Origin: an uncultured Syntrophomonadaceae bacterium
GTDB taxonomy: Bacteria > Bacillota > Dethiobacteria > DTU022
DNA length: 64,000 nucleotides
Direction: 5' to 3'
NCBI GenBank assembly: GCA_964464625.1
Contig: CAYXKD010000002.1
Location: 32,453-96,452 of the forward strand
Both the position numbers and the translations under genes were made by a program. Within the stretch, counting starts at the first letter, position 1. Every line of letters starts with the position of its first letter. Of the stretch, positions 23,131 to 54,152 are shown piece by piece. The notes below the pieces were generated by a model, which was given only the letters and a program-made list of their open reading frames with translations, was not told the DNA's origin and made no database searches.

Positions 23131-23143
23131 CGAAAGGGAAGGG

Positions 23144-23184
23144 AAATTAGTAAACTTGGTGCCTGGCACCAAGTTTACTAATTT
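23144..23184. repeat. 35-bp perfect palindrome, copy 2, between convergent hsp20 and LCP genes. Likely a bidirectional terminator.
   Basis: aaa-TTAGTAAACTTGGTGCCTGGCACCAAGTTTACTAA-ttt (core 23147-23181). The LCP gene stop codon (23178-23180) lies inside the right arm. Confidence 0.85.
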
Positions 23185-24425
23185 TCTTCTTCTGATGCGT
23201 CGTTTTCGTCGGGGGGTGGGTCGTTTTCCTCACCGGGGGGCGCAGGTGTTTCGCTGTCAGGATCGGGATCGTCGTCACCGTCGGGGTCGGTATCGTCTCC
23301 CGGGGTTTCCGGGGGATCATCCTCTACCGGCCCGGGCTTATCATCAATATCGTCGCCGGGATCCAGCTCCAGCGGGGGTATGTATTCATCGATCTCCCAT
23401 TCATCACCGGCCGGCAGCGGCGCCATGCCGGGACCGGGCAGTGTGATCTGCTCCCTGGCGGGAACATCCACACCGAATACCTTTTTGATGAGCTCCACCC
23501 TGGATTGCTCATTTATGACCACATAGGATATATTTAGCCCGTTTCGCGGGGCATACTGCCCGCTGCCCGTAAATACATCCATGCTGATGTCCTCCGCCTT
23601 GACCCTGAGCCCGAAAAGGGCCAGCTGGGCTATCTGCGCCGCATTCAGATTGGTCTCCACATTGTTCTGGACAGACCTGTACATCGCAGGGATATCCCTG
23701 AGTTTTCCCCTCTCCTTGATCTGCCTGAAAGCCTCCACCAGCACCTCCTGCTGTCGGGAAGCCCTGCCGAAATCACCGCCAATGCTGCGGTCGCGCACAA
23801 ATGTCAGGAATTTTTCGCCGTCAAGAAGCTGGTAGCCCTGATCAAGCAGAAGGGCTCCCCGCCCAAAATCGGCTCTGACAGGATGTTTCACATCAAAATA
23901 GACGCCGCCCACCCGATCAACCACTTCCCTGGCTCCATCCATATCCACGATTACATGGCAGTTGACAGGTATACCGCCCAGAAATTCCTCAACAGTTCTA
24001 ATGACGGTATTGACGCCGCTTTGATGTTTATCCGTAACCCCGGCCATATTATAGCCATACATATAGGAATGATTGATCTTGTCATATATCTCTGTCCCCG
24101 CTATCTTCACATAGCTGTCCCGGGGAATGCTCACCAGTGAAACACTCCGCTCCTTTAAATCCAGGGAGGCAATCATGATCGTATCGGGGCGAAAAATGGA
24201 ATAGACACTCTCCCTCCCGGCATCGCGGTCAAAGCCGAGCAGGAGAATATTCACACGATTGGGAGTGATACTTTCAGTGGCGGAAGCATCGCTCCAGCCA
24301 CTGCCGCCGCTGCTTTTGAAAAGGAGTGCCGGAAAACAGAAATAAGCAGTTGAAAAGGCAATCACCGCAATGAGCAAAGCCAGGAAAGCTGTTTGTCTCA
24401 CCAGGGATCGTTTCTTTTTTTTCAT
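23178..24425 (-). CDS. LytR-CpsA-Psr (LCP) family glycopolymer-peptidoglycan ligase with an acidic Pro-rich C-terminal tail
   Basis: 415 aa. N-terminal TM. LCP core blocks NILLLGFDRD, DTIMIASLDL, LVSIPRDSYV and FLTFVRDR. The C-terminus is D/P/E-rich low complexity. Confidence 0.85.
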   Translation of the reverse strand: MKKKKRSLVRQTAFLALLIAVIAFSTAYFCFPALLFKSSGGSGWSDASATESITPNRVNILLLGFDRDAGRESVYSIFRPDTIMIASLDLKERSVSLVSIPRDSYVKIAGTEIYDKINHSYMYGYNMAGVTDKHQSGVNTVIRTVEEFLGGIPVNCHVIVDMDGAREVVDRVGGVYFDVKHPVRADFGRGALLLDQGYQLLDGEKFLTFVRDRSIGGDFGRASRQQEVLVEAFRQIKERGKLRDIPAMYRSVQNNVETNLNAAQIAQLALFGLRVKAEDISMDVFTGSGQYAPRNGLNISYVVINEQSRVELIKKVFGVDVPAREQITLPGPGMAPLPAGDEWEIDEYIPPLELDPGDDIDDKPGPVEDDPPETPGDDTDPDGDDDPDPDSETPAPPGEENDPPPDENDASEEEN

Positions 24426-24619: not shown

Positions 24620-25588
24620 TCAATTCATTTCAGGGAAAAAAACCTCTTTTATGATCTGCCAGTTGGCTTCATCGTCCAGAATAAGCCGCTCTTCATCATC
24701 GCCTTCAATATACTCACCCTGCAGGGTATAATCGTCCACAGAGTTGATGTCCAGATGCTCGCGGGCAAAGACAACAAGTGAAATGATCTGATTTAGCTGC
24801 AAATCCGTATCCAGACTATCCTGGTACGCATGGTAAGTGGGAAGTACCTGGCGAAAGCGCCCCATCTTTTTAAAATGGCTCAGTGTCGCCAGAAGCAGCT
24901 TCTTCTGCCTCTCTATCCTCATCAAATCATCCCTGCTGTCAGAGTCCAGGTAAGTAAGGTATTGCATGTAGGCGCGCCCGTCAAGCAGCTGCGGGCCCAC
25001 ATAAAGATCCTCTGCAGGGGTTGGCCCGGGAATAAAGATATCAACATCAAATTCCACCCCTCCCATGGAATCGATGAGCTGCTCAAAGCCCTTCATATCA
25101 ACAGCAATATAGTAATGCAGGTTCACTCTCTTCAAAAGGGACTCCACGGTTTCAAGAATGCAATTAATCCCCTGCCGGTAATTCTTACCATCTCCATTCC
25201 CGCTGCCCAGCCTGTAAGCAAATTGAAGGCGCTCCCACCTGTTTTTTCCTGCTATCTTCACATAGGAATCGCGGGGGATGCTCAGCAGCGTTAAAGAGTC
25301 CCGGTCAAAATTAATAGAGGCAACCATAATCGTATCGGCCCGGTAGCCACTCTCACTGTCTCCATCATCAAGATCCCACCCCAGGCCGAGAATGGCTATA
25401 TTTACGATTCGCTCACCAAAATATTTCCCCGGTTCACCCATAGCATCAAAATCTTCCCGGAAAAGATGGGCCGGATCAAAGAATACGCGATAGATCCCCA
25501 CACCGATAATAGCCACCGAAACAACCAGGATCGTTGACACCACGGCGAGTGAGAAATAGATTTTTTCTTTTCTGGATAACTTTCGCAA
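24620..25588 (-). CDS. LCP family protein (second paralog)
   Basis: 322 aa. TM plus NIAILGLG, DTIMVASINFDRDSLTLLSIPRDSYV and YLTYLDSDSRDDLMRIERQ motifs. Confidence 0.85.
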   Translation of the reverse strand: MRKLSRKEKIYFSLAVVSTILVVSVAIIGVGIYRVFFDPAHLFREDFDAMGEPGKYFGERIVNIAILGLGWDLDDGDSESGYRADTIMVASINFDRDSLTLLSIPRDSYVKIAGKNRWERLQFAYRLGSGNGDGKNYRQGINCILETVESLLKRVNLHYYIAVDMKGFEQLIDSMGGVEFDVDIFIPGPTPAEDLYVGPQLLDGRAYMQYLTYLDSDSRDDLMRIERQKKLLLATLSHFKKMGRFRQVLPTYHAYQDSLDTDLQLNQIISLVVFAREHLDINSVDDYTLQGEYIEGDDEERLILDDEANWQIIKEVFFPEMN

Positions 25589-25618: not shown

Positions 25619-27397
25619 CTACCATATTCTATTCAGTTCATAAAGGGTAGCCTCCTCATAGATACCCCTGATTTCAGGAGGGTGATAATCGCCTTCCGCC
25701 AATCCCCATACCTTTAAAAGCTCATACAACACCTGCGAATAGGATTCGTTCACTACAACAAACACTCTTTTGCAATGATAGGATACATCCCATAAATATG
25801 AACTTGACAGCCCTTTTTCTCTCAGGTAGTACTCCAGGATTGCGTCTGAAGGAGCCGTAGCAAGGATACAGTCGCCCTCTTGCAACAGGGGCGCTACTGT
25901 TTCAACAATGGCCGGAGCATCTCTCAGGGAACCGGTCTCATTGGAATAGTAAATCTCCTTCGACCCCAAAAGCTGAATAGTGAGCATTGCCGACAGAGCC
26001 ACCACTATAATAGCACAGACTGGGCCTTTATAACGAAGATTCTTAATCCTGCTCTGCTCTAAGAGATAATCCAATCCCGCCGCAACGGCTATAAAGAAGA
26101 AAAAGGCCCAGAAAATCCATGTCCGCGGCGGCGATGCCGCTCTCTGGATCAGCAGTAAGGGCAGAGGCGCAATCACCGCTGAAAGAAGCAGCAAGTTTAG
26201 CTTTCGATAAAAGATTACAGAGACCAGCGCCGCCGCAGCCAGTATTAGCTGCAACGCCGTCGGGATATCTCTCATTAACTGGCAGACCACTGCCAGAACA
26301 GTGTTTGGCCAGAGACGGCTCAAAGCAACCCAGCTTCGAGGCAGAACATAGGGGTTGGCTGCCAGCGCCTCCCATCCCGAAAGGATCAAAACCGGCAGGT
26401 AAAGTATAAACGTAATCAGTGCGATTAACAACAATGAACCAAAAAGCTCCTTCAGCCTGGAGAACCGCCGGGGATTATCTTTTTCCAGGACAATAGAGAA
26501 AAACAACCAGCAGAACACTATGCTCAAGGGATAGAGCATTACCGGGACAGTGTACAACCCCAGCGCAGCAAATAAGGCCAGGAGCACCCAGAGAAAGCGG
26601 TTATTGCTCTTCTGCAGATGCGAAGCCACGTAGAGAACGCAGAGAAAAAGAAAAACCATGAGCGTATAGCCCCTGGCATTTACAGAGTACTCCACAAGAA
26701 TGGATGAAGAGGCGGCCAGCCCTGCAGCGATGAGAGCGGCATTGGCATTAACGAGGCGCCGCACCACGGCATAGGATGCCGGGATAATCAAAACGCCGGA
26801 TATAAAAGCCGGCAGCCGGAAAGCCCAGGGTGCACCGCCGAAAATCAGGTATGCGCAACGCATCAGCAGGGAATGCAGGATATGGTTGTTAGGGGTGGCG
26901 TAGAACGAAGCTGCCGCTAAAGCGGGGCGTAAGGCATTGCATAAGAAACTGCCGGCCTCATCAAATTTAAGAGGCACCTTCAGATAATAGAGCCGCACCA
27001 GGAAACCCAATAGCAGGAGCAGCAGCAGGGTAACATAGTGCACTCTCTCTCTTTGAAAAGCCAGCTTTAAAGAGCGCTGCTTAAGTTTGCCGCTCAACAG
27101 TTTCGCAGAAATGATCACATCCCTAAAATAGATATTGATCCTTTTTCTGGCCAGATAAAGCAGGATTGCGCCCAGAAGGGCGGCTCCCCCGAAAAGTTTC
27201 AGGCGTCCCGAGATTATATGGTACCATGATTCGCTGAATATGGAAGCATCCCCGCTCGCGGCAAAGGCATCCAATTTGCTTTTTACAAGATCATAGGGGA
27301 TAAAAGCGCCCGCGATCAAAAAGGTGCCGCCCAGAAACAGCAAAAGCACCAGTATCCAGGTGAAACAGCGAAAAGGTTTATCACTGGAAGAAAGCAT
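25619..27397 (-). CDS. GT-C fold glycosyltransferase, family 39 / ArnT-PMT-like (YkcB-like)
   Basis: 592 aa polytopic membrane protein. The first extracytoplasmic-loop region (YYLKVPLKFDEAGSF...) matches the PMT_2/ArnT family pattern. Confidence 0.6.
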   Translation of the reverse strand: MLSSSDKPFRCFTWILVLLLFLGGTFLIAGAFIPYDLVKSKLDAFAASGDASIFSESWYHIISGRLKLFGGAALLGAILLYLARKRINIYFRDVIISAKLLSGKLKQRSLKLAFQRERVHYVTLLLLLLLGFLVRLYYLKVPLKFDEAGSFLCNALRPALAAASFYATPNNHILHSLLMRCAYLIFGGAPWAFRLPAFISGVLIIPASYAVVRRLVNANAALIAAGLAASSSILVEYSVNARGYTLMVFLFLCVLYVASHLQKSNNRFLWVLLALFAALGLYTVPVMLYPLSIVFCWLFFSIVLEKDNPRRFSRLKELFGSLLLIALITFILYLPVLILSGWEALAANPYVLPRSWVALSRLWPNTVLAVVCQLMRDIPTALQLILAAAALVSVIFYRKLNLLLLSAVIAPLPLLLIQRAASPPRTWIFWAFFFFIAVAAGLDYLLEQSRIKNLRYKGPVCAIIVVALSAMLTIQLLGSKEIYYSNETGSLRDAPAIVETVAPLLQEGDCILATAPSDAILEYYLREKGLSSSYLWDVSYHCKRVFVVVNESYSQVLYELLKVWGLAEGDYHPPEIRGIYEEATLYELNRIW

Positions 27398-27424
27398 TTT
27401 CAGCTCCCCCTAAAGGAAAAGTAT

Positions 27425-29866
27425 TCAGGAATAATCCGCCGGCTGGTAGAAAATCCTATCTGGATAATTTTTCTTAAAGCTGTTTTTAAAGAGGGCAAAG
27501 GGCGACAGGGCCGCATCCCTTGCCAGGGCCATGCCCCCTCCCCTGACTCCCGCTGTGTTGCCCCTGAAAAGATTGCCCGAGATCTCCAGCACTGAGCGCC
27601 ATGCGGAGATCCCGCCCCCGTACACCTCGGCAATATTGCCCTCGATAGTATTACCGGTCAATACGGGCGAAGCGGCCACAATATTGATCCCGCCGCCATG
27701 AACCGCCTTATTCTTGAAAATGTAGTTGTCCAGTATTGAAGGTTTCCCCCCCAGACTGACAGCCATGCCGCCGCCCATCTTTGCCTCATTGGCCTCGATG
27801 CGGTTGCCCTCCACAGCAGGATCCGCAAGTATACAACAGATCCCTCCTCCCTCGATGAGAGCGCTGTTACCCGCAATGGTATTGGCGATGAGGTGAGGCG
27901 CCGCCTCCAGAACGGCGACCCCTCCACCGTACCCGGGAACCTTGCCCTCGCCGGAATCTGTTGTATTGTTTTCGATAATGTTATTGGAGATTACCGGACT
28001 GCTCCCTTTCGCAACGAGAATGCCGCCCCCGAAACAACCCATAAACTCTTCCACCACCGTTCCCTGCCCTCCGGTAATGGTAAAACCGGCCAGAAGAGCA
28101 CCCTCCCCCTCACCATTGCAAAAGGAAACAACCGATCTTTCCCCTGCGCCCTGAATGATGGTATGGCTGACAACTTCGGGATCTTCAGGATCGCTGCTCT
28201 GCACCGCAACCTCTTTGCCCATGAAGTCGATATTCTCTACGTAAATACCGGGACTCACAATGATCCTCTCCCCATTCAGGGAAGCCTCAATGGCCTTCTG
28301 GATGCTGCTGTATTCGCCGGGAACCAGTTTCTGCCCCCCTGAAAGTTCCCGATCCTTTTCGCCCAGATCATAAAGATAGATAAAAGCATTCTGGGAGCAA
28401 TAAATATCGAGCAGCTCTCCTATTTGATCAAGATGCCCGGTGAACATTTCTCCTTCCCCAGGCACAACATGGGAGAAGAAAAACCAGATCCGCCCCTTTC
28501 CGACCATCTCATCCAGTTCATCAAGATACAACTGGCGGTTTCCCCTATAATTTCCCCCGGGTATATAAGAAACCTCCTGATTGTATGTGTAATACTCAAA
28601 AACCTTGAATGACTCGTGATAAACATAGATTTCATCGCCAGCCTGCTTATTATCAAAATAGTACTCTATAACGGGCCTGGACTCTTCATTCAGGCGCGGT
28701 TTTACCAGGTGATAAGCGCTGCGTAGCGCCGGTATGGAAAATATGACAACGGCCAAAACGACTGCAGTCACAGCGCTGCGGCGAAAAAGAGCGGCGCCAA
28801 CATGGTAAAGCCCTTCCCCGATGACCAGGTAAAACAGAGGCATGGTAAACAATACCATCCTGTCTGCAATGGGATAGAAACGCATCGCCGACAGTGCCGC
28901 CAGCACCGCCAGCGGCAGCAGGATCAGCCCCAGCACAAAGCGTTCCTTTCTTGATTTCCACAGCATTGCGACCCCCGCGGTGATGATCACAAGAAGCAGG
29001 GCTGCATGGGGAATGCTGAACCCCAGGGGATTGCAAAACAGCTTGATTGCCGCCTGGGGATACCAGGCCAGCTGACTCAGTGAAACGGGAGGAAAAGGAA
29101 TAAAATCATTCTCGAAAAATATATAGAAAGCTCCATTATTTGATGCCGGGCCGGCAATGTAATGATAGCTGATGGCAAAGCTTACGCCCCAGAAAAGGGC
29201 CATGGTTCCAAGTTTCACCATCACCGCTGTGATTTTTTCCTTCTGCTCCCTCAAGGCAAAGATAAAGAGAACAATGCCTGTACCGGCCAGGATAAAGACA
29301 GAGGAATAAGCGCACCAGATCGCCAGGCTGCCGGCAATGGTGAATATGATTGTTTCCCTCAAAGCGTAGCGGCGCCTGTAAAGGTTCTCCGCCAGCAGTA
29401 GAATGACAATGGTGATAAGCAGCTCCAGGCTGTACTGCTTAGCCTCATTGGAATAGTAAATGGCACGGTCTGCCAGCACCAACAAAGCCAGAGCCGGCGG
29501 CAGCGCTTTGGGGCCAAGGAATCTCTCTGCCATTTTCACAAAAAGAAAGAGAGCGGCAATCCCGGACAGTAAAGGGATAAGCCTGAGAATATACTCGCTA
29601 TATCCAAAGAGCTCTGTAAGCAATTTTGTAAGCAGGAGATAGAGAGGCGGCGCAGCCTGCACATTGTCAAGAGGTGAAAGCAGCTCCAGGTATCCCCGCT
29701 CCAGTATATTCATCACCAGCAGAGACTCGTCAAACCAGATGGAGCGGTTGGATAGGTATTGAAGAAGACGCGTCACTATCCCGTAACCGAGAAGTACCCA
29801 GATAAGGACGCGGGAATAATAAATCCTCCGCAAAACCGGCAAAACCGGCAAAACCCTCTCTTTCAA
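27425..29866 (-). CDS. Fusion protein: N-terminal GT-C (GT39/ArnT-like) membrane glycosyltransferase domain plus C-terminal right-handed parallel beta-helix (pectin-lyase/NosD-like) domain
   Basis: 813 aa, TTG start. The N-terminal ~480 aa is multi-TM with a PMT_2-like loop (WFDESLLVMNI...). The C-terminal ~300 aa carries repeated GGG(I/M/V)xxxxSxxxIxxN(T/I) beta-helix turns. A 9-bp tandem repeat encodes (VLP)3 near the N-terminus. Confidence 0.6.
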   Translation of the reverse strand: MKERVLPVLPVLRRIYYSRVLIWVLLGYGIVTRLLQYLSNRSIWFDESLLVMNILERGYLELLSPLDNVQAAPPLYLLLTKLLTELFGYSEYILRLIPLLSGIAALFLFVKMAERFLGPKALPPALALLVLADRAIYYSNEAKQYSLELLITIVILLLAENLYRRRYALRETIIFTIAGSLAIWCAYSSVFILAGTGIVLFIFALREQKEKITAVMVKLGTMALFWGVSFAISYHYIAGPASNNGAFYIFFENDFIPFPPVSLSQLAWYPQAAIKLFCNPLGFSIPHAALLLVIITAGVAMLWKSRKERFVLGLILLPLAVLAALSAMRFYPIADRMVLFTMPLFYLVIGEGLYHVGAALFRRSAVTAVVLAVVIFSIPALRSAYHLVKPRLNEESRPVIEYYFDNKQAGDEIYVYHESFKVFEYYTYNQEVSYIPGGNYRGNRQLYLDELDEMVGKGRIWFFFSHVVPGEGEMFTGHLDQIGELLDIYCSQNAFIYLYDLGEKDRELSGGQKLVPGEYSSIQKAIEASLNGERIIVSPGIYVENIDFMGKEVAVQSSDPEDPEVVSHTIIQGAGERSVVSFCNGEGEGALLAGFTITGGQGTVVEEFMGCFGGGILVAKGSSPVISNNIIENNTTDSGEGKVPGYGGGVAVLEAAPHLIANTIAGNSALIEGGGICCILADPAVEGNRIEANEAKMGGGMAVSLGGKPSILDNYIFKNKAVHGGGINIVAASPVLTGNTIEGNIAEVYGGGISAWRSVLEISGNLFRGNTAGVRGGGMALARDAALSPFALFKNSFKKNYPDRIFYQPADYS

Positions 29867-29884
29867 AACAATCCGCCTCCCCAG

Positions 29885-29923
29885 AATTAGTAAACTTGGT
29901 GCCTGGCACCAAGTTTACTAATT
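29885..29923. repeat. 35-bp perfect palindrome, copy 3, at the junction of gtrA-like and the GT-C fusion gene
   Basis: aa-TTAGTAAACTTGGTGCCTGGCACCAAGTTTACTAA-tt (core 29887-29921). The GtrA-like stop codon (29918-29920) is inside the right arm, at the same relative position as in copy 2. Confidence 0.85.
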
Positions 29924-30343
29924 GAAGATGAATTTTTTGCGGGAGAAGTAGTTCCAGAAGAATACGATTCCTGTGGCGGCGACTTTTGAGATCATGTAGT
30001 GCACCTGGAAAATAGAGACAAAGAGATAGAGAAAGAACTCGTTAAAAAGCAGCCCGATGAGGCTGACAAAGAATACCAGGCCTATCTCGAGGTATCTGGT
30101 GTGGCGGCCGCTGCTGAAAACACATTTTATCGAAAGTACATAGTTCACCGCTGTGGAGAAAATGAATGAGAGCGCCGCTGCAAGCAGGTAGTGCATCGCT
30201 CCGTATTTTACCAGGGCCCAGTAGAGCAGCCAGTCGACAAGCGCCGCTGTGGCTCCGACGAAGAAATATTTAATCAGTTGTGTCAGGTTAACCTGTTTTT
30301 CCAGGAAAAGGGCAACTGCGCCTTTTTCTGCGCTGTTATGCAT
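29918..30343 (-). CDS. GtrA-family protein (small polyprenyl-phosphate-sugar flippase-like membrane protein)
   Basis: 141 aa, 4 TM. KYFFVGATAALVDWLLYWAL is the GtrA-family signature region. Confidence 0.8.
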   Translation of the reverse strand: MHNSAEKGAVALFLEKQVNLTQLIKYFFVGATAALVDWLLYWALVKYGAMHYLLAAALSFIFSTAVNYVLSIKCVFSSGRHTRYLEIGLVFFVSLIGLLFNEFFLYLFVSIFQVHYMISKVAATGIVFFWNYFSRKKFIFN

Positions 30344-30361
30344 TTTTGCAGCCTCCCCCAG

Positions 30362-31060
30362 CTAAATCTTTCTTTTAAAGAGGCCGTATTTCAAAATTAC
30401 ATATATCGCCCTGACCCCGTCTTTCCAGCCAATCTTCTTCCCCTCTTCATAGCTCCGCCCGTAATAGGAGATGCCCACCTCGTAGATGCGGCACTTCATC
30501 CTGGCGATCTTGGCCGTGACCTCGGGCTCGAAACCAAACCTGTCCTCTTTTATATCCACACTCTGGATGATTTCGCGCCGGAACATCTTGTAACAGGTCT
30601 CCATATCCGTTAAATTTAAATTTGTAAACATATTGGAGAAGAGGGTGAGAAAGCGGTTGCCCACGTAATGCCAAAAATAGAGGACGCGGTGCGGCCCCCC
30701 GCCCATGAACCTGGAACCGTAGACCACATCGGCTTTTCCTTCAAGGATGGGCTGCATCAGCACAGGGTACTCCGCCGGATCATACTCCAGGTCCGCATCC
30801 TGCACGACGACACAATCACCGCTGACCTCCTTGAATCCCGTTCTCAATGCGGCGCCTTTGCCCATATTCTTTTCATGGTAGAGAACCTTCTCCACAAGGG
30901 GTTCAATTTTCTCTTTCAAAATATCCCTGGTTCCATCAGTGGAATAATCATCGACAACGATTATCTCCAGCTCCTTAACAGGCGACTCCATGATGTCATG
31001 AATGATCTGCTCCACTGTATCTTTTTCATTATATACAGGAACAACGACTGAAAGTTTCAT
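30362..31060 (-). CDS. GT2 polyprenyl-phosphate sugar synthase (GtrB/DPM1/ArnC-like)
   Basis: 232 aa. The N-terminus [10 protein letters not shown], the DDYSTDGT motif and the [12 protein letters not shown] DxD region are typical of GtrB/Dpm1-type GT2. Confidence 0.8.
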
Positions 31061-31117
31061 AAGCCTGCTCCTTTGCCTGATTTTAATCTCCCACTGAATG
31101 TCCTGCTGCGCCTGATG

Positions 31118-32086
31118 CTATTTCGGCGCCCCCCTCGCAGCAGGCTCACCCAGCTCGCTCTCAAAATAGGCAATAGTCTTTTTCAGTCCTTGCTCCAGTG
31201 GTACCCGCGGCAGCCAGTTCAACTTTTCGCGGGCCAGTGATATATCGGGCTGCCTGCGGCGGGGATCGTCCTGCGGCAGCGGCTGGAAGATCAGTTTCGA
31301 CCTTGAACCGGTAAGCTCCACTATTATTTTCGCCAGTTCATGAATGCTGATCTCCTGGGGGTTGCCCAGGTTCACCGGTCCCGGGAAGTCAAAGGGGGTA
31401 ACCATCATTTTAAGCAACCCCTCAACAAGATCATCCACATAGCAGAATGAACGGGTCTGCGATCCGTCACCAAAAATGGTGATATTGCGATTCTGCAAAG
31501 CCTGGACAATAAAGTTGGAGACCACCCTGCCGTCATCGGGATGCATCCGGGGTCCGTATGTGTTGAAAACCCGCACGATCTTCACCTTGACCCCGTTTTG
31601 ATGATAGTAACCCATAAAAAGGGTCTCTGCACAGCGTTTCCCCTCATCGTAACAGGCCCGGGGACCCACAGGATTTACATTTCCCCAGTAAGTTTCATCC
31701 TGGGGATGGCTTTCGGGATCACCGTACACCTCGCTTGTGGAGCTCTGCAGTATGGCCGCCCCGGTCCGCCGGGCCAGTCCCAGCATATTGATGGAGCCGT
31801 TTATACTGCTCTTTATGGTTTTGATGGGGTTGAACTGATAATGAACAGGAGAAGCAGGACAGGCCAGATTGTATATTTCATCCACTTCTACATATAGGGG
31901 CAAGGTGATATCATGGCGCATCGCTTCAAAATTGCGGTTTCCCAGCAGATCTTCAATGTTTTTCTTCCGCCCTGTAAAATAGCTGTCCACGCATAAAACC
32001 TCGCCGCCCCCTTTGAGCAACCTTTCACAGAGATGCGATCCGATAAACCCTGCACCGCCCGTTACAAGTACCCTTTTCATGGCCAA
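31118..32086 (-). CDS. UDP-glucuronate decarboxylase (UDP-xylose synthase, UXS)
   Basis: 322 aa. [40 protein letters not shown] and [14 protein letters not shown] are hallmark UXS blocks. Confidence 0.9.
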
Positions 32087-32219: not shown

Positions 32220-33503
32220 CTAGACCCCGGGTGCATTGAAAAAGCTTTCCACCTTCTTGCCGCTGTAGAAACACTGGTCCGACCATAAATAATCCCATTC
32301 CCCGAACCTGCCGATGGGCAGGATATCCAGAGAAGCGAGATATTTATGGACCTTCTCCCTGCGCGGCAGCATCCCCTGATCAAAAACCACATTGCCGTAA
32401 GGGAGTATGCGAAAATCGGTAAGTGAAATATCATCCCTTGAAGCGAAATTCATCTTCCTGATGATATCGACAACATGTTCGATCATCGCTCCATCAGTGC
32501 CCGGCAGAGGCTTCTGCTCTGAAAAATAGATCTCAAACTGCAGCGAGCTGCAGCCCGCTGGAACATTGTCGGGAGATTTAATACTGGGCGAGTAGACCCG
32601 CGCGGGCAGCATTTCCGGATCATAGATATAGAACCAGAGGTGATCCCCGGCCCGGGGAACCTTAAATCCCACCGAAACAATAGCCACAGAGGTGGCCCAG
32701 AGCCGCGCCGCCGCCTCCCTGACCTCCCCGGGGGCATCTTTGATCATAGGAATCAGATCAGGCAGGGGAATGCTGGTGGCAAGATTCTCATAATAGCATT
32801 TTTCTCCATCTGAAAACTGCACATACTTTTTCGCCGCATCGATCAGAAGAGCCTTCTTCTCCGTCCGGATATCCAGTCCCGAGGCCGCCGCCTCCAGAAA
32901 AGCGCGAAATCCCCCTTTTTTGGGATAGCGCATCTTTTTAAAATAGTAGAGCGCAGGGGTCTCGTCAGTCATCGCCCCGAAAAGCACCTCGTCAAGATCC
33001 GGACAATACATGCGCTGCCCGATCCAGTCCGTTGTGAGCCTCTCCGCCCCCACTGTCCAGTATTTTTTGGTATAGACTTCAGGGTAACGCTCCGCAATTA
33101 CCCCCCCATACTGCCCCAGCAGCCATTCCCGGTAATTGCCGGGCTCCTCAAAGTGCGGCCGCTCCACAAAACTGCGGATAGCCTCCACCTTCTCCAAAAC
33201 AGGCAGCGGGTAAAGATTGTTCTGCACCGGATGTTTGAGCCATCGGCCCCGTTCATAATTATAGGGATTGGACTCATGCTCCAGGTAGTCAACGCGATAA
33301 AATATCTTGCTAAGGTAGGGATCATCGGTAAAAGCAAAATGGACGGCATGATCAAAACGGAAACCGTCAATTGTAAAATTGTCAGCCAGGCCGCCCCAGC
33401 GGGGCCGCGCCTCGTAAATCACCGCTTCCCTTCCCAGTTTCCCTGCATGGTAAGCGGCGGAAATCCCCGCCACCCCCCCTCCCAGGACCATCAGTTCCAC
33501 CAT
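32220..33503 (-). CDS. FAD-dependent UDP-galactopyranose mutase family (Glf-like) protein
   Basis: 427 aa. The N-terminal GGGVAGISAAY Rossmann fold, the GGLADNFTIDGFRFDHAVHFAFT block and C-terminal GRFGEWDYLWSDQ resemble the Glf pattern. Substrate unknown. Confidence 0.55.
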   Translation of the reverse strand: MVELMVLGGGVAGISAAYHAGKLGREAVIYEARPRWGGLADNFTIDGFRFDHAVHFAFTDDPYLSKIFYRVDYLEHESNPYNYERGRWLKHPVQNNLYPLPVLEKVEAIRSFVERPHFEEPGNYREWLLGQYGGVIAERYPEVYTKKYWTVGAERLTTDWIGQRMYCPDLDEVLFGAMTDETPALYYFKKMRYPKKGGFRAFLEAAASGLDIRTEKKALLIDAAKKYVQFSDGEKCYYENLATSIPLPDLIPMIKDAPGEVREAAARLWATSVAIVSVGFKVPRAGDHLWFYIYDPEMLPARVYSPSIKSPDNVPAGCSSLQFEIYFSEQKPLPGTDGAMIEHVVDIIRKMNFASRDDISLTDFRILPYGNVVFDQGMLPRREKVHKYLASLDILPIGRFGEWDYLWSDQCFYSGKKVESFFNAPGV

Positions 33504-33519: not shown

Positions 33520-34206
33520 TTACATTTTAAGTCCCCTTAATTCCTCCAGATTCTTCCTATCAACCTCTTTCTGAAAGAGGCTCACCTTCTCCCTGATCAG
33601 CTGAGGCGGCAGGTCCCACCATTCTATCTGCAGCAGCCGCTCAATGGTCTCTTCATCAAAGCGGTATTTCACCGTGGCCGCCGGCACCCCCACGGCAACA
33701 GCATAGGGAGGAATATCCCCGGTGACAACGGCACCCGCCCCGATAACGGCACCGTGGCCGATGCTCACTCCGGGCATAATCACGCAATTGCATCCCAGCC
33801 AGACATCATGACCGATATGGACCCTCCCTCCGGCCGGGCCCATTTTTTCCACAAAGCCGTGCCTGGGATCATAGGGAAAAGAGTGGGTCGTCACAATTCC
33901 ATGGGGATGATTTGTCGCCCCTATGGTTACATTCCAGGATATAGAGCAAAACTTGCCCAGCACCGCCTCTGCAACCCTGCTGTTTTTCCCCACATAACTG
34001 TAATCGCCGATAACAGAATTGATTACCTGCGAATAAGAAACAAGCCCCACATTCTTTCCCAGCACCGAATTCTCTATGTCAACGTAAGGATCTATGAACA
34101 CACCGCTCTTGATATAAGCGCGGTATTTAATCCTCTGCCAGAGCGGGTTGGGCATGATATATTCCAGGATTCTCTTCAGCCTCATAAGCGCCTCCTTCAT
34201 CCCCAC
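33520..34206 (-). CDS. Hexapeptide-repeat O-acetyltransferase (CatB/Vat-like)
   Basis: 228 aa. The left-handed beta-helix hexapeptide repeats and PHG/W-rich blocks are typical of the xenobiotic/sugar acetyltransferase family. Confidence 0.8.
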   Translation of the reverse strand: MGMKEALMRLKRILEYIMPNPLWQRIKYRAYIKSGVFIDPYVDIENSVLGKNVGLVSYSQVINSVIGDYSYVGKNSRVAEAVLGKFCSISWNVTIGATNHPHGIVTTHSFPYDPRHGFVEKMGPAGGRVHIGHDVWLGCNCVIMPGVSIGHGAVIGAGAVVTGDIPPYAVAVGVPAATVKYRFDEETIERLLQIEWWDLPPQLIREKVSLFQKEVDRKNLEELRGLKM

Positions 34207-43762: not shown

Positions 43763-46120
43763 TCAATGCGCCTCCTGCAAATTAAACTCCAGAAGCAGCC
43801 TCGAAACAGGAACTTTTACACCGTAAGAAGGGGAGTGGTAACCGCCCTTTATATGCCCCCTGACAGAGGCGCCGCCGCTTATAACTTCCATATAAACGCG
43901 CCCTTTTCCTGTCGACAGAATATAGCGCTGCGGCGTGATCTTCTCAACAGCCACACCCGGCGCCATGTTAAAAGAGAGGAAAAAGCTCCCCTCTGAAATT
44001 TGATCCTCCACGATGACATTCTCTGCCGCTATGTAAAAACTGCGCCGGTGAATGCTGCCGTAGCCCCGGTGCATCCCTGAAAAATAGCCGGGCCCAACGC
44101 CTGTAATCTCCGCCCCCGCTTTATCGGGCAGGCTGAAAAGCCCCTCCATCCCCGGAGGCCACTCTTTCTGCTCCCTGCCGGGCAAGAGCAGGCTGTTATG
44201 CGCCGCCGTGGCCCGAAAATAGTTGCGCTCTTCAACAGAAGCGGTGTACACATAGCTTCCCGGATCCACAATCAGATCATCGCCGCGGACATTTAACTCA
44301 AAAGAGAGAATGTCATTGTGCGAATGCACGCCCCATCCCCCGGCAGCGCCGCTGCTGCAGGAGATAACGGCATGAAAGGGCGGAACATTGAAAACAGCCA
44401 CCCCTGCAGAGGGAAAACAGACCGGCTGCTCCCGGCCCCCCTCCAGTGCGGCGCCGCCCCCCTTAAAACCATCCAGGGTAAATATTGTGCGCACCGCCGG
44501 CATTTTTTCCGAAAGGGCAAACCCCTCTTCCGAAGCCTGCCCCGCTTTCACCTGCGGCCGCTCACCCCTCCCGGCGGCTGCACTGCGCAACTGATCCATA
44601 ATATCCTCATCCACTGCTGCAGTCAACAGCTCCGCAGCGGGCCGGTAAAGTTCCGCCGCCGCCAATAGATCCTCCCGGCCGAATATGTGCCCGGCCACCG
44701 CTACCAGGGGCCTGAAATCGCGGTGCTCCTCCCGGTAAATAGCGCTCTCTTCATCAAGGGCGGCGGTAAGAATGAGCTTGTGGAAACGCCCGTTATCAAA
44801 ATCGCCCAGCTGCGGCGCCCTCCCATCGGGCTTGAGCAGGGCAGCCGCATATTCAGCCGCCTTGAGCGCCCTCTCCCAGAAAGATGGCGAAAAGATCAGG
44901 GCGGCGGCGCGGCCCCCTTCACCCGCCCCCAACTTCTGCGCAATCTCCTCCCTGCGCCCCCGCTCCATCTGGAGCAGCAGCAGGGAGGCCGAATAAAATA
45001 TTTCCGTTGCCAGGCGGTGGTAACCGGTGGAGCCCTCAAAATTGCTCCCATCAGGCTGAAACTGCCTCTCTATCTCCCGGGAAAATTCGCGGACAGCAAA
45101 GTTCAAGGAGCGGCGGCTCTGCGGCAGCCAGGGGCAGGCCGCCTCCAGGTAAATCTGCCCCGCCAGCCCCGCCAGGTAATGGTTGCCCACAAAAAGATCC
45201 CTCTTTTCAGGATTGCGCCGCAGGAAAAGGGCATGCTTGTACAGGCTCCAGTTTAACAGACGGCTGAACTCAGGAGTGAACACCTCAGAATCTGCAAATA
45301 GTTTGAGCCCCCAGAGCCAGTTCACCGCCCTGATCGCCGCCTCCATGGGGCAGCTCCAGTTTGCACCGCAGTAAGGGGCATTGGAGACAATCCAGTCTGT
45401 GAGCTGCAGCACAAACTCAGCCGCCAGCGCAGCGGCCCGCTGCGGCTCCTCTTCAAGCCGGTAAGCCAGGCCCATAGCCCCTAAATGCTGAAAGCGGGAG
45501 AGCTCCCAGGGCACCTTGATATCGGCCCCCTCTGTCCGCCCGATGGGGATATCACGGTACCAGGCCAGGGGATCCCAGCGGTAACCGGAGCGGAAATCCA
45601 GTTGCCAGTCAATGGGGCGGTAGCTCTGCAGCCGCTCATAAAGGATCTTCTTCCCCTCACTCCCGGGCGCCCCCGCAGCGCCCCCGCCCGGACAAAGCAG
45701 GCGGCGCATCATCTCCAACACAGCCCCCTCCGCCGCCGCCCCGGGCGACATCTCCATGCGGCGCCCGGCAAAGCCCGCTGCCTCTGTATAATAGCCCACC
45801 TCAACAGGTCCCGAGCCCAGCAGGTCAAAACGGTGCGCAGAAGCCTCAGCAGCATAATGGCTGATGAGCCGCCGCCTCTCCGGCGGCAGCGCCCCTGCAA
45901 GAGCGGCGCTGTCAACAGCGCCGGGCAGCCCCGTCAGAGAAAAATCGGCCGGCACCCCCGGCGCCCGGGGTACGCCTCCCTGCCGGAAAAGATTGCGGTA
46001 GCGCCCTGCAGCCGCCTTTTGCCGCCGGCGCAGAAAAGGCGAAAGCGCCCTCTGCCCCACCTTCAAAAAAATCAGGCGGGGCGGCAGCTCAAGGAGGCGG
46101 CGCAGCGAAAAACCCTTCAA
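43763..46120 (-). CDS. Heparinase II/III-like family protein (alginate-lyase-like N-domain plus Hepar_II_III C-domain)
   Basis: 785 aa. A W/Y/N-rich (alpha/alpha)-toroid-like N-half (NAPYCGANW...AIRAVNWLW) and a beta-sandwich C-half. The stop overlaps the wecC end in an ATGA-type coupling arrangement. Confidence 0.6.
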   Translation of the reverse strand: MKGFSLRRLLELPPRLIFLKVGQRALSPFLRRRQKAAAGRYRNLFRQGGVPRAPGVPADFSLTGLPGAVDSAALAGALPPERRRLISHYAAEASAHRFDLLGSGPVEVGYYTEAAGFAGRRMEMSPGAAAEGAVLEMMRRLLCPGGGAAGAPGSEGKKILYERLQSYRPIDWQLDFRSGYRWDPLAWYRDIPIGRTEGADIKVPWELSRFQHLGAMGLAYRLEEEPQRAAALAAEFVLQLTDWIVSNAPYCGANWSCPMEAAIRAVNWLWGLKLFADSEVFTPEFSRLLNWSLYKHALFLRRNPEKRDLFVGNHYLAGLAGQIYLEAACPWLPQSRRSLNFAVREFSREIERQFQPDGSNFEGSTGYHRLATEIFYSASLLLLQMERGRREEIAQKLGAGEGGRAAALIFSPSFWERALKAAEYAAALLKPDGRAPQLGDFDNGRFHKLILTAALDEESAIYREEHRDFRPLVAVAGHIFGREDLLAAAELYRPAAELLTAAVDEDIMDQLRSAAAGRGERPQVKAGQASEEGFALSEKMPAVRTIFTLDGFKGGGAALEGGREQPVCFPSAGVAVFNVPPFHAVISCSSGAAGGWGVHSHNDILSFELNVRGDDLIVDPGSYVYTASVEERNYFRATAAHNSLLLPGREQKEWPPGMEGLFSLPDKAGAEITGVGPGYFSGMHRGYGSIHRRSFYIAAENVIVEDQISEGSFFLSFNMAPGVAVEKITPQRYILSTGKGRVYMEVISGGASVRGHIKGGYHSPSYGVKVPVSRLLLEFNLQEAH

Positions 46121-47409
46121 TAGCGCTCCCCCTTTTCATCCAGCCCCAGCAGATGGTAGCTAAAACCGTGCTCCTCCCAGAGCGCCCTCTCCAGGCAGGC
46201 TCTTGTATCCACAATGACATGGCGCCTCATGATCTTCCCCAGTTCTTTGGGGTAGAGATAGCGAAATTCATCGTGATCGGCCAGCAAAAGGGCGCAATCG
46301 GAACCGCTAAAGGCGGCTGAGAGATTGTTTGTCTCCTCCGGCAGGGTCACCACATGGGGATCATATATGCGGCAGTTAATTCCCCTGCCCCGCAGCGCCT
46401 CCAGGACCCGCAGGGCGGGGCTCTCCCTGGTATCATCGATATTGCCCTTGTACGCCACACCCATCAGTGTGACCACAGGATCTTCAATCCCCTTGAGCAG
46501 CTGCACAACAAGATCAGCCACCATGAGGGGGCGCTCATCATTGATCCGGCGGGCCAGTGCCAACAGCCTGGATTCTTCAGGAAACTGTGAAATCACAAAC
46601 CAGGGATCAACAGAGATGCAGTGTCCCCCCACGCCCGGCCCAGGCTGGTGCAGATGCACGCGGGGGTGCAGGTTTGCCAGGGCGATCATCTCCCAGGCAT
46701 TTATCCCCAGCTTCTCGCAGATGGCGGAGAGCTCATTGGCCAGCGCCACATTGACATCGCGGTAGATATTCTCGGACAGCTTGACCATCTCGGCGGTCCG
46801 CGCACCGGTGAGAATAATCTCTCCCTCCACAAAACTCCGGTAAAGCGCCTCGGCCTTCCGCGCCGATGCCTCGTCATAGCCGCCGATAATGCGGTTGTTC
46901 TCAATAAGTTCTTTCATGGTCCGCCCCGGCAGCACCCTCTCGGGGCAGTAAGCGGCATAAAAATCGCGTCCGCCCTTCAGGCCCCCCTGCTCCAGCAGGG
47001 GCACCACCAGCCCCTCCAGCGTCCCCGGGGGGGCCGTGGATTCCAGGATCACCAGATTCCCCTTTTGCAGATGGGGGGTGATTGCCTTCACTGCAGACTC
47101 CACATTGCCCAGATCCACATCGACGCGCCCCCCCTCCCTCTGCAGCGGTGTGGGCACGGCAATGAGAAAGACATCGGCGCTCTCCGGCTCAAGGGCGGCC
47201 ACAAGGTTTCCCGAATGCACCGCCGCCTGGACCAGGGTGTGCAGCCCCGGCTCGTGGATGTGGACAAGGCCCCGGTTGATCCTGGAGACCAGCGTCTCCT
47301 CCAGATCCACCCCCAGCACCTGGAAGCCGCTGCTGGCCAGGATGCTCGCTGTGGGCAATCCAATGTAGCCCAGGCCGATGATGCAGATCTTCTCTTTTTC
47401 TCTTTTTTT
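46117..47409 (-). CDS. wecC: UDP-N-acetyl-D-mannosamine dehydrogenase (nucleotide-sugar dehydrogenase)
   Basis: Start placed at ATG 47409 (MSKKKREKEKICIIGLGYIGLP) with a GGAGTG RBS. Dinucleotide-binding domain and catalytic Cys region present. Partner of wecB. Confidence 0.85.
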   Translation of the reverse strand, partial: KKREKEKICIIGLGYIGLPTASILASSGFQVLGVDLEETLVSRINRGLVHIHEPGLHTLVQAAVHSGNLVAALEPESADVFLIAVPTPLQREGGRVDVDLGNVESAVKAITPHLQKGNLVILESTAPPGTLEGLVVPLLEQGGLKGGRDFYAAYCPERVLPGRTMKELIENNRIIGGYDEASARKAEALYRSFVEGEIILTGARTAEMVKLSENIYRDVNVALANELSAICEKLGINAWEMIALANLHPRVHLHQPGPGVGGHCISVDPWFVISQFPEESRLLALARRINDERPLMVADLVVQLLKGIEDPVVTLMGVAYKGNIDDTRESPALRVLEALRGRGINCRIYDPHVVTLPEETNNLSAAFSGSDCALLLADHDEFRYLYPKELGKIMRRHVIVDTRACLERALWEEHGFSYHLLGLDEKGERY

Positions 47410-47479
47410 CTTGGACATGGCTTTCACTCCTTCAGGCGTGCTTCGCCGCCGCCCCAACCTGCCCCTGAGACAGCCTGCT

Positions 47480-48997
47480 TCAGGATTTGATCCGGGAGAG
47501 CAGGCTGGAGCGGATTGCGCCGGCGTCAATATAGCCGGAGCGGTTCATCAGAAAAAGCATGGCCAGAGCGGCCAAAAGAACCAGAAACAGCTTAACGGCG
47601 AGACAGATCCAGAGCCCCTCAATGGCGGCCTCAACAAGAACGATCATCGCCGTGGAGGCGATGGAGATGAGCAGCAGCAGAGCCAGGTTGCCCCAGTCAT
47701 AGGGCACAGGCCAGAGCTTTTGCGAGAGGAAAAGGTAACTCAGGGTGAACAGAAAATAAGATATCCCCGTTGCCGCCCCCGCCCCGGCGATACCCCAGTG
47801 CGGGATGAGGAAATAATTGAGAACAACATTGACTAAAGCGAAAATCCAGCAGGCAATCATGATATAAAGGGTTTTATTGTGCACCAGGATCCCCACCACC
47901 GTCACCTGAGCGGTCATGAAAAACATTATGCCCAGCGCCAGGTAGGGGATGGGCTGAAAAGAAGCATAGTAAGCGGGGGGAACCAGAATATAGAGCACCT
48001 CCTGGGAGAGAGCCACAAAGGCGACAACAGCCAGGCCTGCACCGGCTGTCAGATAGGTCATGGTCCGGGAGAATACCGCTTTTGCCTTTTCACGATCTTC
48101 TTCGTAAAGTTTGATCGCATGGGGCTGCCAGGACTGTCCCACCGCATTGTGCAGCAGCGAGAGCACCGCCACCATGGAGCTGGAGATGGCATAGAGACCC
48201 GCCTTTTCCAGCGAATCCATCTTGATGAGCATGATCCTGTCGGCATTGCTGAAGAGCCAGAAGGCCAGGGAGACAGGGACAAGAGGCAGACCGAAGAGCA
48301 GCAGCTTTTTCAGGTAAGCCCTTGATAAGTTTCTGGTGAGCAGCTCCCTGATGGAGTATATCCGCACCGGGATCATGATCAGGGAGGCGATCCCCGCACC
48401 CAGCAGGGCGCCCGTAATGCCCAGCCTGAAATTAAGAGCAAAAACCACAGATAAAATCAGGGTCAGCGCTGCGGTGATGACATTTAGAATGGTAAAGGCC
48501 CTGGCTTTGAACTGGTTGCGCAGCGCCTGGGAGAGAAGCATATTCAACATCGCTGCAGGGCTGAATGCCAGCGCTGTGATCCAGGCAAGCTTAAATATCT
48601 GATGCTCCAGCAGCATAACTGTAATAGCCCTGCTAAAAGGCAGCAGCGCCAGCACCACAAGATGGCTCCACACTGCCAGGAAGAGAAACCATGTTGAGGT
48701 TAAACTTTTTCGCTCCTCATCGGACTTGCATTCAAAATAATAGCGGGTATAGGCATCGTCTCCGCCCAGCAGCAGTATGCCCGTCAAAAATGCGATCACC
48801 GCCGAGATAAAGCTCCAGGCGCCGTACTCATCGGGGCTGAACAGGCGGGTAAATATGGGCGCTGAGATGAGGGAGAGCCCCTTGATCAGCATATTGCCGA
48901 AGCTGTAAAGAGCCATATCTCCAAAAAGCGCCTTGAAGCTGAACCCCCTGGCAGGCAGCGGTGCAGCCCCTTCCACTGTTCCCCGGTGTGCGCTCAC
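47480..48997 (-). CDS. Wzx-type oligosaccharide flippase (MOP superfamily polysaccharide biosynthesis protein)
   Basis: 505 aa with ~14 TM. The N-terminal ALYSFGNMLIKGLSLISAPIFTRLFSPDEYG is typical of Wzx/PST family proteins. Confidence 0.8.
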   Translation of the reverse strand: MSAHRGTVEGAAPLPARGFSFKALFGDMALYSFGNMLIKGLSLISAPIFTRLFSPDEYGAWSFISAVIAFLTGILLLGGDDAYTRYYFECKSDEERKSLTSTWFLFLAVWSHLVVLALLPFSRAITVMLLEHQIFKLAWITALAFSPAAMLNMLLSQALRNQFKARAFTILNVITAALTLILSVVFALNFRLGITGALLGAGIASLIMIPVRIYSIRELLTRNLSRAYLKKLLLFGLPLVPVSLAFWLFSNADRIMLIKMDSLEKAGLYAISSSMVAVLSLLHNAVGQSWQPHAIKLYEEDREKAKAVFSRTMTYLTAGAGLAVVAFVALSQEVLYILVPPAYYASFQPIPYLALGIMFFMTAQVTVVGILVHNKTLYIMIACWIFALVNVVLNYFLIPHWGIAGAGAATGISYFLFTLSYLFLSQKLWPVPYDWGNLALLLLISIASTAMIVLVEAAIEGLWICLAVKLFLVLLAALAMLFLMNRSGYIDAGAIRSSLLSRIKS

Positions 48998-53394: not shown

Positions 53395-54152
53395 ATCTTC
53401 CAGGGCGCCTCCCCGCTATTCCAGTAATCTTCCAGTATCTTTAGCTCGCGGTAGGTGTCCATGCACTGCCAGAAATCATAATGGCGATAGGCCATCATCT
53501 CTCCCGCAGCTGCGATACGGCGCAGAGGCTCCTGTTCCCAGGGCGGATCGCCGCTGATATAGTCAAAAATCCCCCGCTCCAATATAAAGAAGCCGCCATT
53601 GATCCACCCCTCTCCAGTCAGGGGTTTCTCCAGAAACTCCGTCACCCTGTCCTCCTGGAAATTCATGCTCCCGAAACGGGCCGGCGGCCGCACCGCCGTA
53701 ACGGTAACCAGCCTGCCGTGGGAGCGGTGAAAATCGAGCAGCGCCGCCAGATCCACATTGGAAACCCCGTCGCCATAGGTAAGCATAAAGGTATCATCGC
53801 CAAGCCAGGGCGCAAGCCTTTTGATGCGCCCGCCTGTGTTGGTCAAAAGGCCCGTCTCCACAAGGTGGACCTTCCAGTCCTCCTTGCCGCTGTTATGGAC
53901 TGTAACCCGGCCGTCGGAAAGGTCGATGGTGATATCCCCGTTCATGCAATAATAGTCATGAAAATAGCGCTTAATCACTTCACTTTTATATCCCAGGGCC
54001 ACGATAAATTCTTTGAACCCGTAATGGGCGTAATGCTTCATAATATGCCAGATAATGGGGCGCCCGCCGATCTCCACCATCGGTTTCGGTCTGACCGCAG
54101 TCTCCTCAGCCAGCCGCGTGCCCATACCCCCGGCCAGAATTACCACCTTCAC
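53388..54152 (-). CDS. rfbF: Glucose-1-phosphate cytidylyltransferase
   Basis: GTG start at 54152 ([14 protein letters not shown]) with a [28 protein letters not shown] is diagnostic of RfbF. Confidence 0.9.

Follow-up and report, generated by a model that had tools for sequence, protein, structure and literature searches.

A 64,000-nucleotide stretch of contig CAYXKD010000002.1 from an uncultured Syntrophomonadaceae bacterium (the window, in what follows) carries at positions 25619-32086 a compact gene block that is very probably an extracytoplasmic glycosylation module. The block encodes a UDP-xylose synthase (UXS), a family 2 glycosyltransferase (GT2), a GtrA-family membrane protein, and two glycosyltransferases of the GT-C class, here called GT-C#1 and GT-C#2, the second of which ends in a right-handed beta-helix. 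This fusion of a GT-C enzyme to a beta-helix is real, rare, and restricted to one small clade. We read the block as a lipid-phosphate-sugar, or three-component, glycosylation system located where a Wzx/Wzy-type wall-polysaccharide locus ends; for that reading taken whole, with xylose as the donor sugar, we see the case as evenly balanced. What emerges is a standard extracytoplasmic module with three unusual features, namely the rare beta-helix fusion, the two-GT-C layout, and a plausible but unproven xylose donor.

An initial annotation, made from the sequence alone, had placed these five genes in one co-directional block, and all five open reading frames (ORFs) were found there, on the minus strand:

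31118..32086, minus strand: UXS (UDP-glucuronate decarboxylase, UDP-xylose synthase), 322 aa; matches human UXS1 and has the catalytic motifs
30362..31060, minus strand: GT2 of the DPM1/PpgS type, 232 aa, candidate polyprenyl-phosphate sugar synthase; Pfam Glycos_transf_2
29918..30343, minus strand: small GtrA-family membrane protein, 141 aa, which may serve as flippase, as membrane partner of the GT2, or as both; PF04138
27425..29866, minus strand: GT-C#2, a GT-C enzyme with a C-terminal right-handed beta-helix, 813 aa; AlphaFold2 (AF2), Foldseek, Pfam Beta_helix
27428..28354, minus strand: beta-helix domain of GT-C#2, residues 505-813; domain-only AF2 model
25619..27397, minus strand: GT-C#1, 592 aa, PMT_2 type; ~120 additional aa at the N-terminus; Pfam PMT_2

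In the mechanism that we propose, the soluble GT2, held at the membrane by GtrA or cooperating with it, would load one sugar from a nucleotide sugar onto undecaprenyl phosphate (Und-P), and GtrA or another factor would shift the lipid-linked sugar to the outer face. The two PMT_2-type GT-Cs would then pass the sugar to two different positions of a polysaccharide, or act in two successive steps, and ligases of the LytR-CpsA-Psr (LCP) family encoded next to the module would join the decorated polysaccharide to peptidoglycan. The donor would be UDP-xylose made by the adjacent UXS, giving undecaprenyl-phosphate-xylose, which might then be epimerised to another pentose. The beta-helix of GT-C#2 would hold the polysaccharide acceptor, much like the carbohydrate-binding modules of EmbC and the GT136 enzymes. 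The analysis establishes the folds, the family memberships, the predicted topology, the synteny, and how rare the fusion is; the lipid carrier, the sugar, the acceptor, and what the beta-helix does are inferred.

The cytoplasmic enzymes and the GtrA protein

Judged by its sequence, the protein encoded at 31118-32086 is a true UXS and not ArnA, in agreement with the initial annotation, which had called it canonical. It matches the human UXS1 structures 4gll and 2b69 with E=1e-125, the next family following at 9e-39, and it keeps the motifs [15 protein letters not shown] and RVVSNF. The catalytic Thr/Glu pair and the Tyr-x3-Lys signature are intact, in the conserved stretches STSEVYGDP and YDEGKR. 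A UDP-glucose 6-dehydrogenase gene, ugd, also reported for the locus, is present farther upstream, and its product is the likely supplier of UDP-glucuronate (UDP-GlcA) to UXS.

The GT2 matches Pfam Glycos_transf_2 (9e-36) and has a conserved DAD motif. Among solved structures its best relative is the Pyrococcus furiosus dolichyl-phosphate-mannose (Dol-P-Man) synthase (DPMS, 5mlz; 2e-21), with ArnC second (8e-15) and GtrB (sll0501) also found. Its NCBIfam matches, AglJ (4.5e-34), ArnC (1e-19), and PpgS (2e-16), all fall under the cut-off, and it is no PpgS equivalog, scoring 60.1 bits on NF058614 against a cut-off of 370. Unlike GtrB, CsbB, and ArnC, the 232-aa protein has no hydrophobic segment; alignment ranges place its end at the point from which GtrB and ArnC continue into their membrane part. 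The architecture is therefore not the GtrB-like one that had been proposed. Instead the protein resembles the polyprenyl-phosphate sugar synthases of the soluble DPM1/PpgS type, with a predicted GT-A fold.

The GtrA gene begins 18 bp downstream of the GT2 gene, and its product matches PF04138 (6.6e-21), the Pfam family 'GtrA/DPMS' that unites GtrA with the membrane domain of archaeal Dol-P-Man synthase. By analogy, GtrA may be a membrane partner of the synthase in addition to, or in place of, a flippase. A GtrA gene is conserved beside GT2 orthologues in three other loci (L009, L014, and L034). In a further locus (L007, 719-1879), a 386-aa protein combines a GT2 domain with a GtrA/DPMS membrane domain, and lies beside PMT_2 GT-Cs and a relative of GT-C#2. 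This natural fusion supports a physical partnership of GT2 and GtrA, although its GT2 domain is just 26% identical to the window GT2.

To see the GT2 in its wider family, we scanned one genome per species, obtained at least 587 confirmed matches, and inspected the best 80 loci (L012-L091). Varied PMT_2-type GT-Cs come after the GT2 gene in cyanobacterial, planctomycete, verrucomicrobial, and flavobacterial loci, and the partner GT-Cs of the family include both PMT_2-type enzymes and membrane proteins bearing tetratricopeptide repeats (TPRs). These neighbourhoods firmly support the assignment of the GT2 family as putative lipid-sugar synthases that serve GT-Cs.

The two GT-C enzymes and the beta-helix fusion

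The initial annotation had described both membrane proteins as 'GT39-like' GT-C enzymes. The GT-C assignment stood, through PMT_2 membership and structural likeness to ArnT, oligosaccharyltransferases, and ALG enzymes; the GT39 label did not, as neither protein matches PF02366 (PMT/GT39). GT-C#1 matches PMT_2 (PF13231) at 8e-11 and 42.8 bits, above the gathering threshold of 26.1. GT-C#2 itself has no PMT-type Pfam match, and weak PMT_2 matches occur in its orthologues P0004 and P0005 and in some unfused relatives. Sequence searches of both enzymes against PDB chains gave nothing meaningful, and a fold search was required. An AF2 model of GT-C#2, built from a 34-sequence alignment, had a mean pLDDT of 91.7, and its top Foldseek matches in the PDB were GT-C enzymes only: ALG12, STT3, AglB, ArnT, PglB, and AftA, each with a probability of 1.0 and E-values between 3e-7 and 1e-5. 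ArnT (5f15) was among the best of these, at E=1.4e-6.

Six residues, D46, E47, K143, Y145, R336, and P343, are invariant across the 34 members of the GT-C#2 family. D46 and E47 directly follow the first membrane helix, and D146 and E147, invariant in the GT-C#1 family, hold the same position. An acidic Asp-Glu pair after the first membrane helix, in the predicted first outside loop, is also seen in other GT-C enzymes.

The two enzymes had also been called paralogous. BLASTP of one against the other returned only spurious alignments. At the level of family profiles the relationship is clear, hhalign joining the two with probability 99.7 and E=3e-27 over 458 columns at 16% identity, in an alignment that takes in the C-terminal alpha/beta domain. 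On this profile comparison, GT-C#1 and GT-C#2 are ancient paralogues and not the products of a recent duplication.

GT-C#2 has about 11 membrane helices in residues 1-390, an alpha/beta domain at 396-500, a linker at 504-510, and the beta-helix at 512-810. The helix count in the model and the positive-inside pattern put the N-terminus inside and residues 396-813 outside. The beta-helix is thus predicted to lie outside the membrane, which answers the question of its placement that the initial annotation had raised. Residues 594-744 match Pfam Beta_helix (1.4e-14), and a domain-only AF2 model of residues 505-813 reached a pLDDT of 94.3 and a pTM of 0.92.

The fusion had been thought unusual, and this is strongly supported. 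We searched 1.84 billion 50%-identity representatives exhaustively with HMMER and inspected the best 150 matches. Among these, only the query's own 50%-identity cluster covered both halves of the query; the remaining top matches were either unfused GT-Cs of ~500 aa or giant multi-repeat beta-helix proteins. With a word-indexed search, five 90%-identity clusters turned out to carry the fusion, each with 63% identity or more. Conversely, none of the 120 best sequence relatives of the beta-helix has a PMT_2 domain. These relatives are stand-alone surface proteins of the Pmp/NosD type with type IX secretion (T9SS), dockerin, or FlgD-Ig tags.

Foldseek places the beta-helix near tailspikes, the pectate lyase Pel9A, the C5-epimerase AlgE, a pectin methylesterase, and PL6 lyases, all of them weak matches (E=1e-4 to 1e-2, TM-score at most 0.54, identity at most 15%). 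From the model, the fold resembles right-handed beta-helices that bind or process polysaccharides. By analogy with other GT-Cs, acceptor binding is the most economical and most likely role. A catalytic role is conceivable, given that lyases, epimerases, and esterases are among the structural neighbours, and this weighs against a binding function. The fusion provides a natural system for testing how a module that binds the acceptor steers a GT-C enzyme.

Known systems and the donor sugar

The closest architectural match to the module is the PpgS-based system that adds galactosamine (GalN) to mycobacterial and corynebacterial arabinogalactan, with a helix-less GT2, a membrane partner, a GT-C, and a donor enzyme encoded in the locus. 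We take its membrane protein Rv3632 to be a member of the GtrA family. In that system PpgS, Rv3632, Rv3779, and Rv3634c bring a short GT2, a small membrane partner, a GT-C, and a sugar-nucleotide enzyme together in one locus (PMC9671496, PMC3485146), and Rv3632 assists PpgS (PMC9671496). Our block differs in having UXS, and hence UDP-xylose, where that locus has a UDP-GalNAc enzyme, in having two GT-Cs, one with a beta-helix, in a GT2 that is not a PpgS equivalog, and in its host, a member of the Bacillota with LCP-anchored polymers.

The block also shares its logic with Gtr-type O-antigen glucosylation (GtrA/GtrB/GtrC) and with the CsbB/GtcA/YfhO, GtlA/GtlB, and GacI/GacL systems, in which an Und-P-monosaccharide is made inside, a GtrA/GtcA-family protein takes part, and a GT-C transfers the sugar to the finished polymer outside (PMC8035078, PMC7389260). 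The three-component architecture proposed in the initial annotation, a cytoplasmic GT2, GtrA, and extracytoplasmic GT-Cs, is supported to this extent. GtrB, CsbB, and GacI, however, have C-terminal membrane helices that the window GT2 does not; the window GT-Cs are of the PMT_2 type and belong to neither the YfhO nor the GtrC family; and the gene supplying the donor here would be UXS.

Two known routes deliver pentoses. In the aminoarabinose pathway, the lipid-linked donor carries Ara4N, a pentose derived by decarboxylation of UDP-GlcA that the GT2 ArnC loads onto Und-P and ArnT, a GT-C, transfers. That logic is shared with our proposal, but the block has no aminotransferase, formyltransferase, deformylase, or ArnE/F, and its decarboxylase is UXS, not ArnA. 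Moreover, the acceptor cannot be lipid A if the host is a monoderm Gram-positive bacterium, as the LCP and sortase genes suggest. The second route starts from phosphoribosyl pyrophosphate (PRPP) and yields lipid-linked ribofuranose, arabinofuranose, and xylofuranose (Ribf, Araf, and Xylf; PMC11127046); the three-component pentofuranose system of Citrobacter youngae, ORF15/ORF14/ORF12 (GT136), is of this kind (Kelly et al. 2024, PMC11127046). Like our proposal, such systems add an extracytoplasmic pentose side chain from an Und-P-pentose by means of a GT-C with a C-terminal module, and GT136 ORF12 and EmbC provide the precedent for such a module binding the acceptor (PMC11127046). They differ in using a UbiA-like phosphoribosyltransferase with a phosphatase, a MATE flippase, and a furanose, where the window has a Leloir-type GT2 by UXS, GtrA, and a beta-helix. 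No UbiA-like synthase with phosphatase, MATE flippase, or GT136 enzyme was found among the scanned ORFs of at least 150 aa, which comprise nearly all larger genes of the window.

The pentose donor was a suggestion of the initial annotation, based on the neighbouring UXS gene, and it stays one. Comparison of loci strengthens it in one respect. A UXS gene (51-63% identical) lies on the same strand directly upstream of the GT2 gene in a proteobacterium (L014) and in three Gemmatimonadota loci (L038, L045, and L065), the last with the order Ugd-UXS-GT2. A distant metagenomic locus (L009) has the order Ugd-UXS-GT2-GtrA-GT-C#2-like, with identities of 59, 65, 44, and 37% for UXS, GT2, GtrA, and GT-C#2, respectively. 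Adjacency of UXS and GT2 falls at four separate places on the GT2 tree, and supports a xylose donor. Closer to home, UXS is 83-85% identical in two syntenic loci (L001 and L004), and in L001, where two unrelated genes take the place of the AsnB-like gene that lies three genes upstream of UXS, it stays with the GT2 module.

Several observations weigh against xylose. UXS is absent within 10 kb of the GT2 gene in 76 of the 80 best loci. In a Flavobacteriales locus (L068, 7670-13006), TviB-like and TviC-like genes occupy the position of UXS, followed by a GT2 65% identical to that of the window, a 247-aa protein, and a PMT_2-type GT-C related to GT-C#2; this is the lone case of another sugar-nucleotide pathway abutting the GT2 family. 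Together these two findings lessen the support for a xylose donor. Either the GT2 family shares one donor, with UXS usually encoded elsewhere in the genome, or the adjacency is not informative. In the best 80 loci the family has no conserved neighbours besides the group of UXS and other short-chain dehydrogenases/reductases (SDRs) and scattered GT-Cs, and in most genomes the context does not reveal the donor. GDP-mannose is the substrate of the enzyme that, among those with solved structures, is nearest to the GT2. Identity within the family is 62-72% over at least 12 phyla in these loci, on a tree that tracks taxonomy, a pattern that one shared housekeeping donor, mannose or glucose for example, would explain no less well than xylose. 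The UXS product might also go to a cytoplasmic transferase that builds the main repeat unit. Finally, we found no description in the searchable literature of a lipid-phosphate-xylose derived from UDP-xylose. On balance, we hold xylose, or a pentose derived from it, as a tentative assignment whose probability falls a little short of even.

The strongest competing explanation keeps the same machinery but makes the lipid-linked sugar a common hexose, mannose or glucose, with GT2 and GtrA forming a split enzyme like Dol-P-Man synthase and UXS supplying a transferase of the repeat unit. The best solved relative of the GT2 is indeed the P. furiosus enzyme, whose membrane domain is homologous to GtrA according to Pfam, and the GT2-GtrA fusion of L007 lies beside PMT_2 GT-Cs; the conservation of the family, its taxonomy-like tree, the scarcity of nearby UXS genes, and the PMT_2-type and TPR-bearing partner proteins all agree with such a hexose. 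The explanation does not account for the same-strand UXS that abuts the GT2 at four places on the tree, twice together with Ugd, or for the UXS that keeps with the module in L001 despite gene replacement upstream, and no mannose- or glucose-activating gene adjoins the GT2 in the window. We thus regard a hexose donor as rather unlikely, with enough in its favour to be taken seriously. Were the donor mannose or glucose, the locus would be an ordinary member of a well-known class.

If the donor is xylose, on the other hand, undecaprenyl-phosphate-xylose derived from UDP-xylose would be a new lipid-linked donor with a new entry route, and a role would be found for a GT2 family that is very widespread and highly conserved yet without an assigned specificity. 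A bolder form of the idea is that the whole GT2 family consists of polyprenyl-phosphate xylose (or pentose) synthases fed by UXS, the Bacillota module being one specialised offshoot of a widespread xylosylation pathway. This is distinctly unlikely in our view. If true, many bacteria would share a so far undescribed pathway in which a lipid donor derived from a nucleotide sugar serves extracytoplasmic xylosylation.

The surrounding polysaccharide locus

The module is flanked on both sides by genes for surface polymers, all on the minus strand. Two of the features below, the mutase-like gene between UXS and the acetyltransferase and the set of three LCP genes around the block, go beyond what had been annotated initially:

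24620..25588, minus strand: LCP glycopolymer-peptidoglycan ligase; PF03816 at 5e-29, TIGR00350 above cut-off; 30 bp 3' of GT-C#1
23178..24425, minus strand: second LCP ligase; PF03816 at 3e-36; own promoter and terminator hairpin
32220..33503, minus strand: FAD protein like UDP-galactopyranose mutase (UGM), eukaryote type; Trypanosoma cruzi UGM 4dsg at 4e-31
33520..34206, minus strand: hexapeptide-repeat acetyltransferase; Hexapep at 1e-17, Vat/CatB-like PDB relatives
36191-37933, minus strand: third LCP gene, with a Big_2 domain; upstream of the block
46117..47529, minus strand: Ugd, UDP-glucose 6-dehydrogenase family, with all three UDPG_MGDP_dh domains
60520-61215, minus strand: sortase gene, in the same window

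Listed in the direction of transcription, the genes are those for the acetyltransferase, the mutase-like protein, UXS, GT2, GtrA, GT-C#2, GT-C#1, and two LCP ligases. The genes of the stretch that starts with UXS and ends with the first LCP ligase are co-directional with gaps of 18-57 bp, and a sequence scan found no strong internal terminator between them. The second LCP gene is preceded by a perfect sigma-70 consensus, TTGACA-16-TATAAT, at 24498-24471 (minus strand), and a 20-bp perfect hairpin at 23142-23186, just past its stop codon, closes the block. L001 and L004-L006, in which GT-C#2 is 63-70% identical, keep the same gene order all the way from the acetyltransferase to the LCP pair; the first LCP gene, the acetyltransferase, and the mutase-like gene hold syntenic positions in L001 and L004. 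Across the syntenic loci the cytoplasmic enzymes are 80-89% identical and the GT-Cs fall to 54-70%.

Upstream of the block are a gene for an AsnB-like amidotransferase and the third LCP gene. A Wzx/Wzy-type cluster lies farther upstream, with a phosphoglycosyl transferase, GT1 and GT2 enzymes, Wzy, a heparinase II/III-like protein, Ugd (14 kb upstream of the block), and Wzx, along with additional genes for deoxy-, amino-, and C-methyl sugars. Three LCP genes and one sortase gene thus fall within one 40-kb surface-polymer region. The three LCP ligases point to the acceptor, which is likely a wall polysaccharide attached by them. In Gram-positive bacteria, sugars attached as side chains outside the membrane influence phage receptors, antigenicity, and the integrity of the wall.

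A different acceptor is also conceivable, the GT-Cs glycosylating proteins (of an S-layer, or anchored by sortase) or lipoteichoic acid, with the beta-helix an adhesin-like or enzymatic surface domain tethered by the GT-C. PMT_2 relatives include enzymes like protein O-mannosyltransferases, the homologues of the beta-helix are surface proteins of the Pmp, T9SS, or dockerin type, and the window does contain a sortase gene. Yet the block sits among three LCP genes of the same orientation within a polysaccharide locus, and for both GT-Cs there are unfused relatives encoded in loci of this kind, alongside Wzy, Wzx, or ABC-transporter genes. We consider protein or lipoteichoic acid glycosylation improbable.

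The protein encoded next to UXS aligns with T. cruzi UGM over residues 4-411; it has an FAD-binding fold, and its R164, R302, R399, Y405, and H55 align with functional residues of UGM. The NCBIfam models that it matches are of the PRK07208-like 'hypothetical protein' kind. The bacterial family to which it belongs occurs widely in polysaccharide loci and is, to our knowledge, uncharacterised. We scanned metagenomes for its relatives and compared 80 loci, those of the direct orthologue and of 79 more distant relatives (43-60% identical). The closest relatives have an LCP gene directly next downstream. The mutase is probably not a part of the module, in that besides the direct orthologue no locus has UXS, this GT2 family, GtrA, or GT-C#1. 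The protein is best seen as a separate contributor to the main polymer, probably of galactofuranose (Galf).

The weakest alternative, which we rate as very improbable, would make the donor a furanose produced by this mutase (UDP-Galf, or a pentofuranose from UDP-xylose) in a nucleotide-sugar route parallel to that from PRPP: the place of the gene beside UXS, with the acetyltransferase gene on its other side, which is preserved in L001 and L004, its conserved UGM residues, and the UDP-xylose to UDP-L-Arap to UDP-L-Araf pathway of Campylobacter jejuni (PMC10615251) favour it, but it is down-weighted by the loci of the 79 more distant relatives, none of which has the module genes, by the lack of a mutase match in L009, L014, and the Gemmatimonadota UXS-GT2 loci, and by the absence of a UDP-xylose 4-epimerase from the conserved block. 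A literature search on UDP-xylofuranose found nothing relevant.

Two SDRs encoded upstream in the window were considered as UDP-xylose 4-epimerases and proved uninformative, one of 336 aa (52384-53394) being CDP-glucose-4,6-dehydratase-like and the other, of 302 aa (57630-58538), giving no defined family. In the Wzx/Wzy cluster, the gene for the heparinase II/III-like protein (785 aa, 43763-46120, minus strand) has a GT1 gene on one side and ugd on the other. Three genes in a row at 51168-54179 (minus strand) encode an NTP-transferase, a CDP-glucose-4,6-dehydratase-like SDR, and a C-methyltransferase (Methyltransf_13/14), and hint that the main polymer contains a deoxy sugar that is branched or C-methylated. 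A DUF368/VCA0040-like protein, described in Pfam as 'undecaprenyl phosphate translocase-like', is encoded at 13470-14261 (plus strand), about 11 kb from the module, which would free Und-P at the outer face. Outside the polysaccharide block, the window also encodes a TupA-like ATP-grasp protein (4054-5028, plus strand) and a DUF5050 protein (5178-6272, minus strand).

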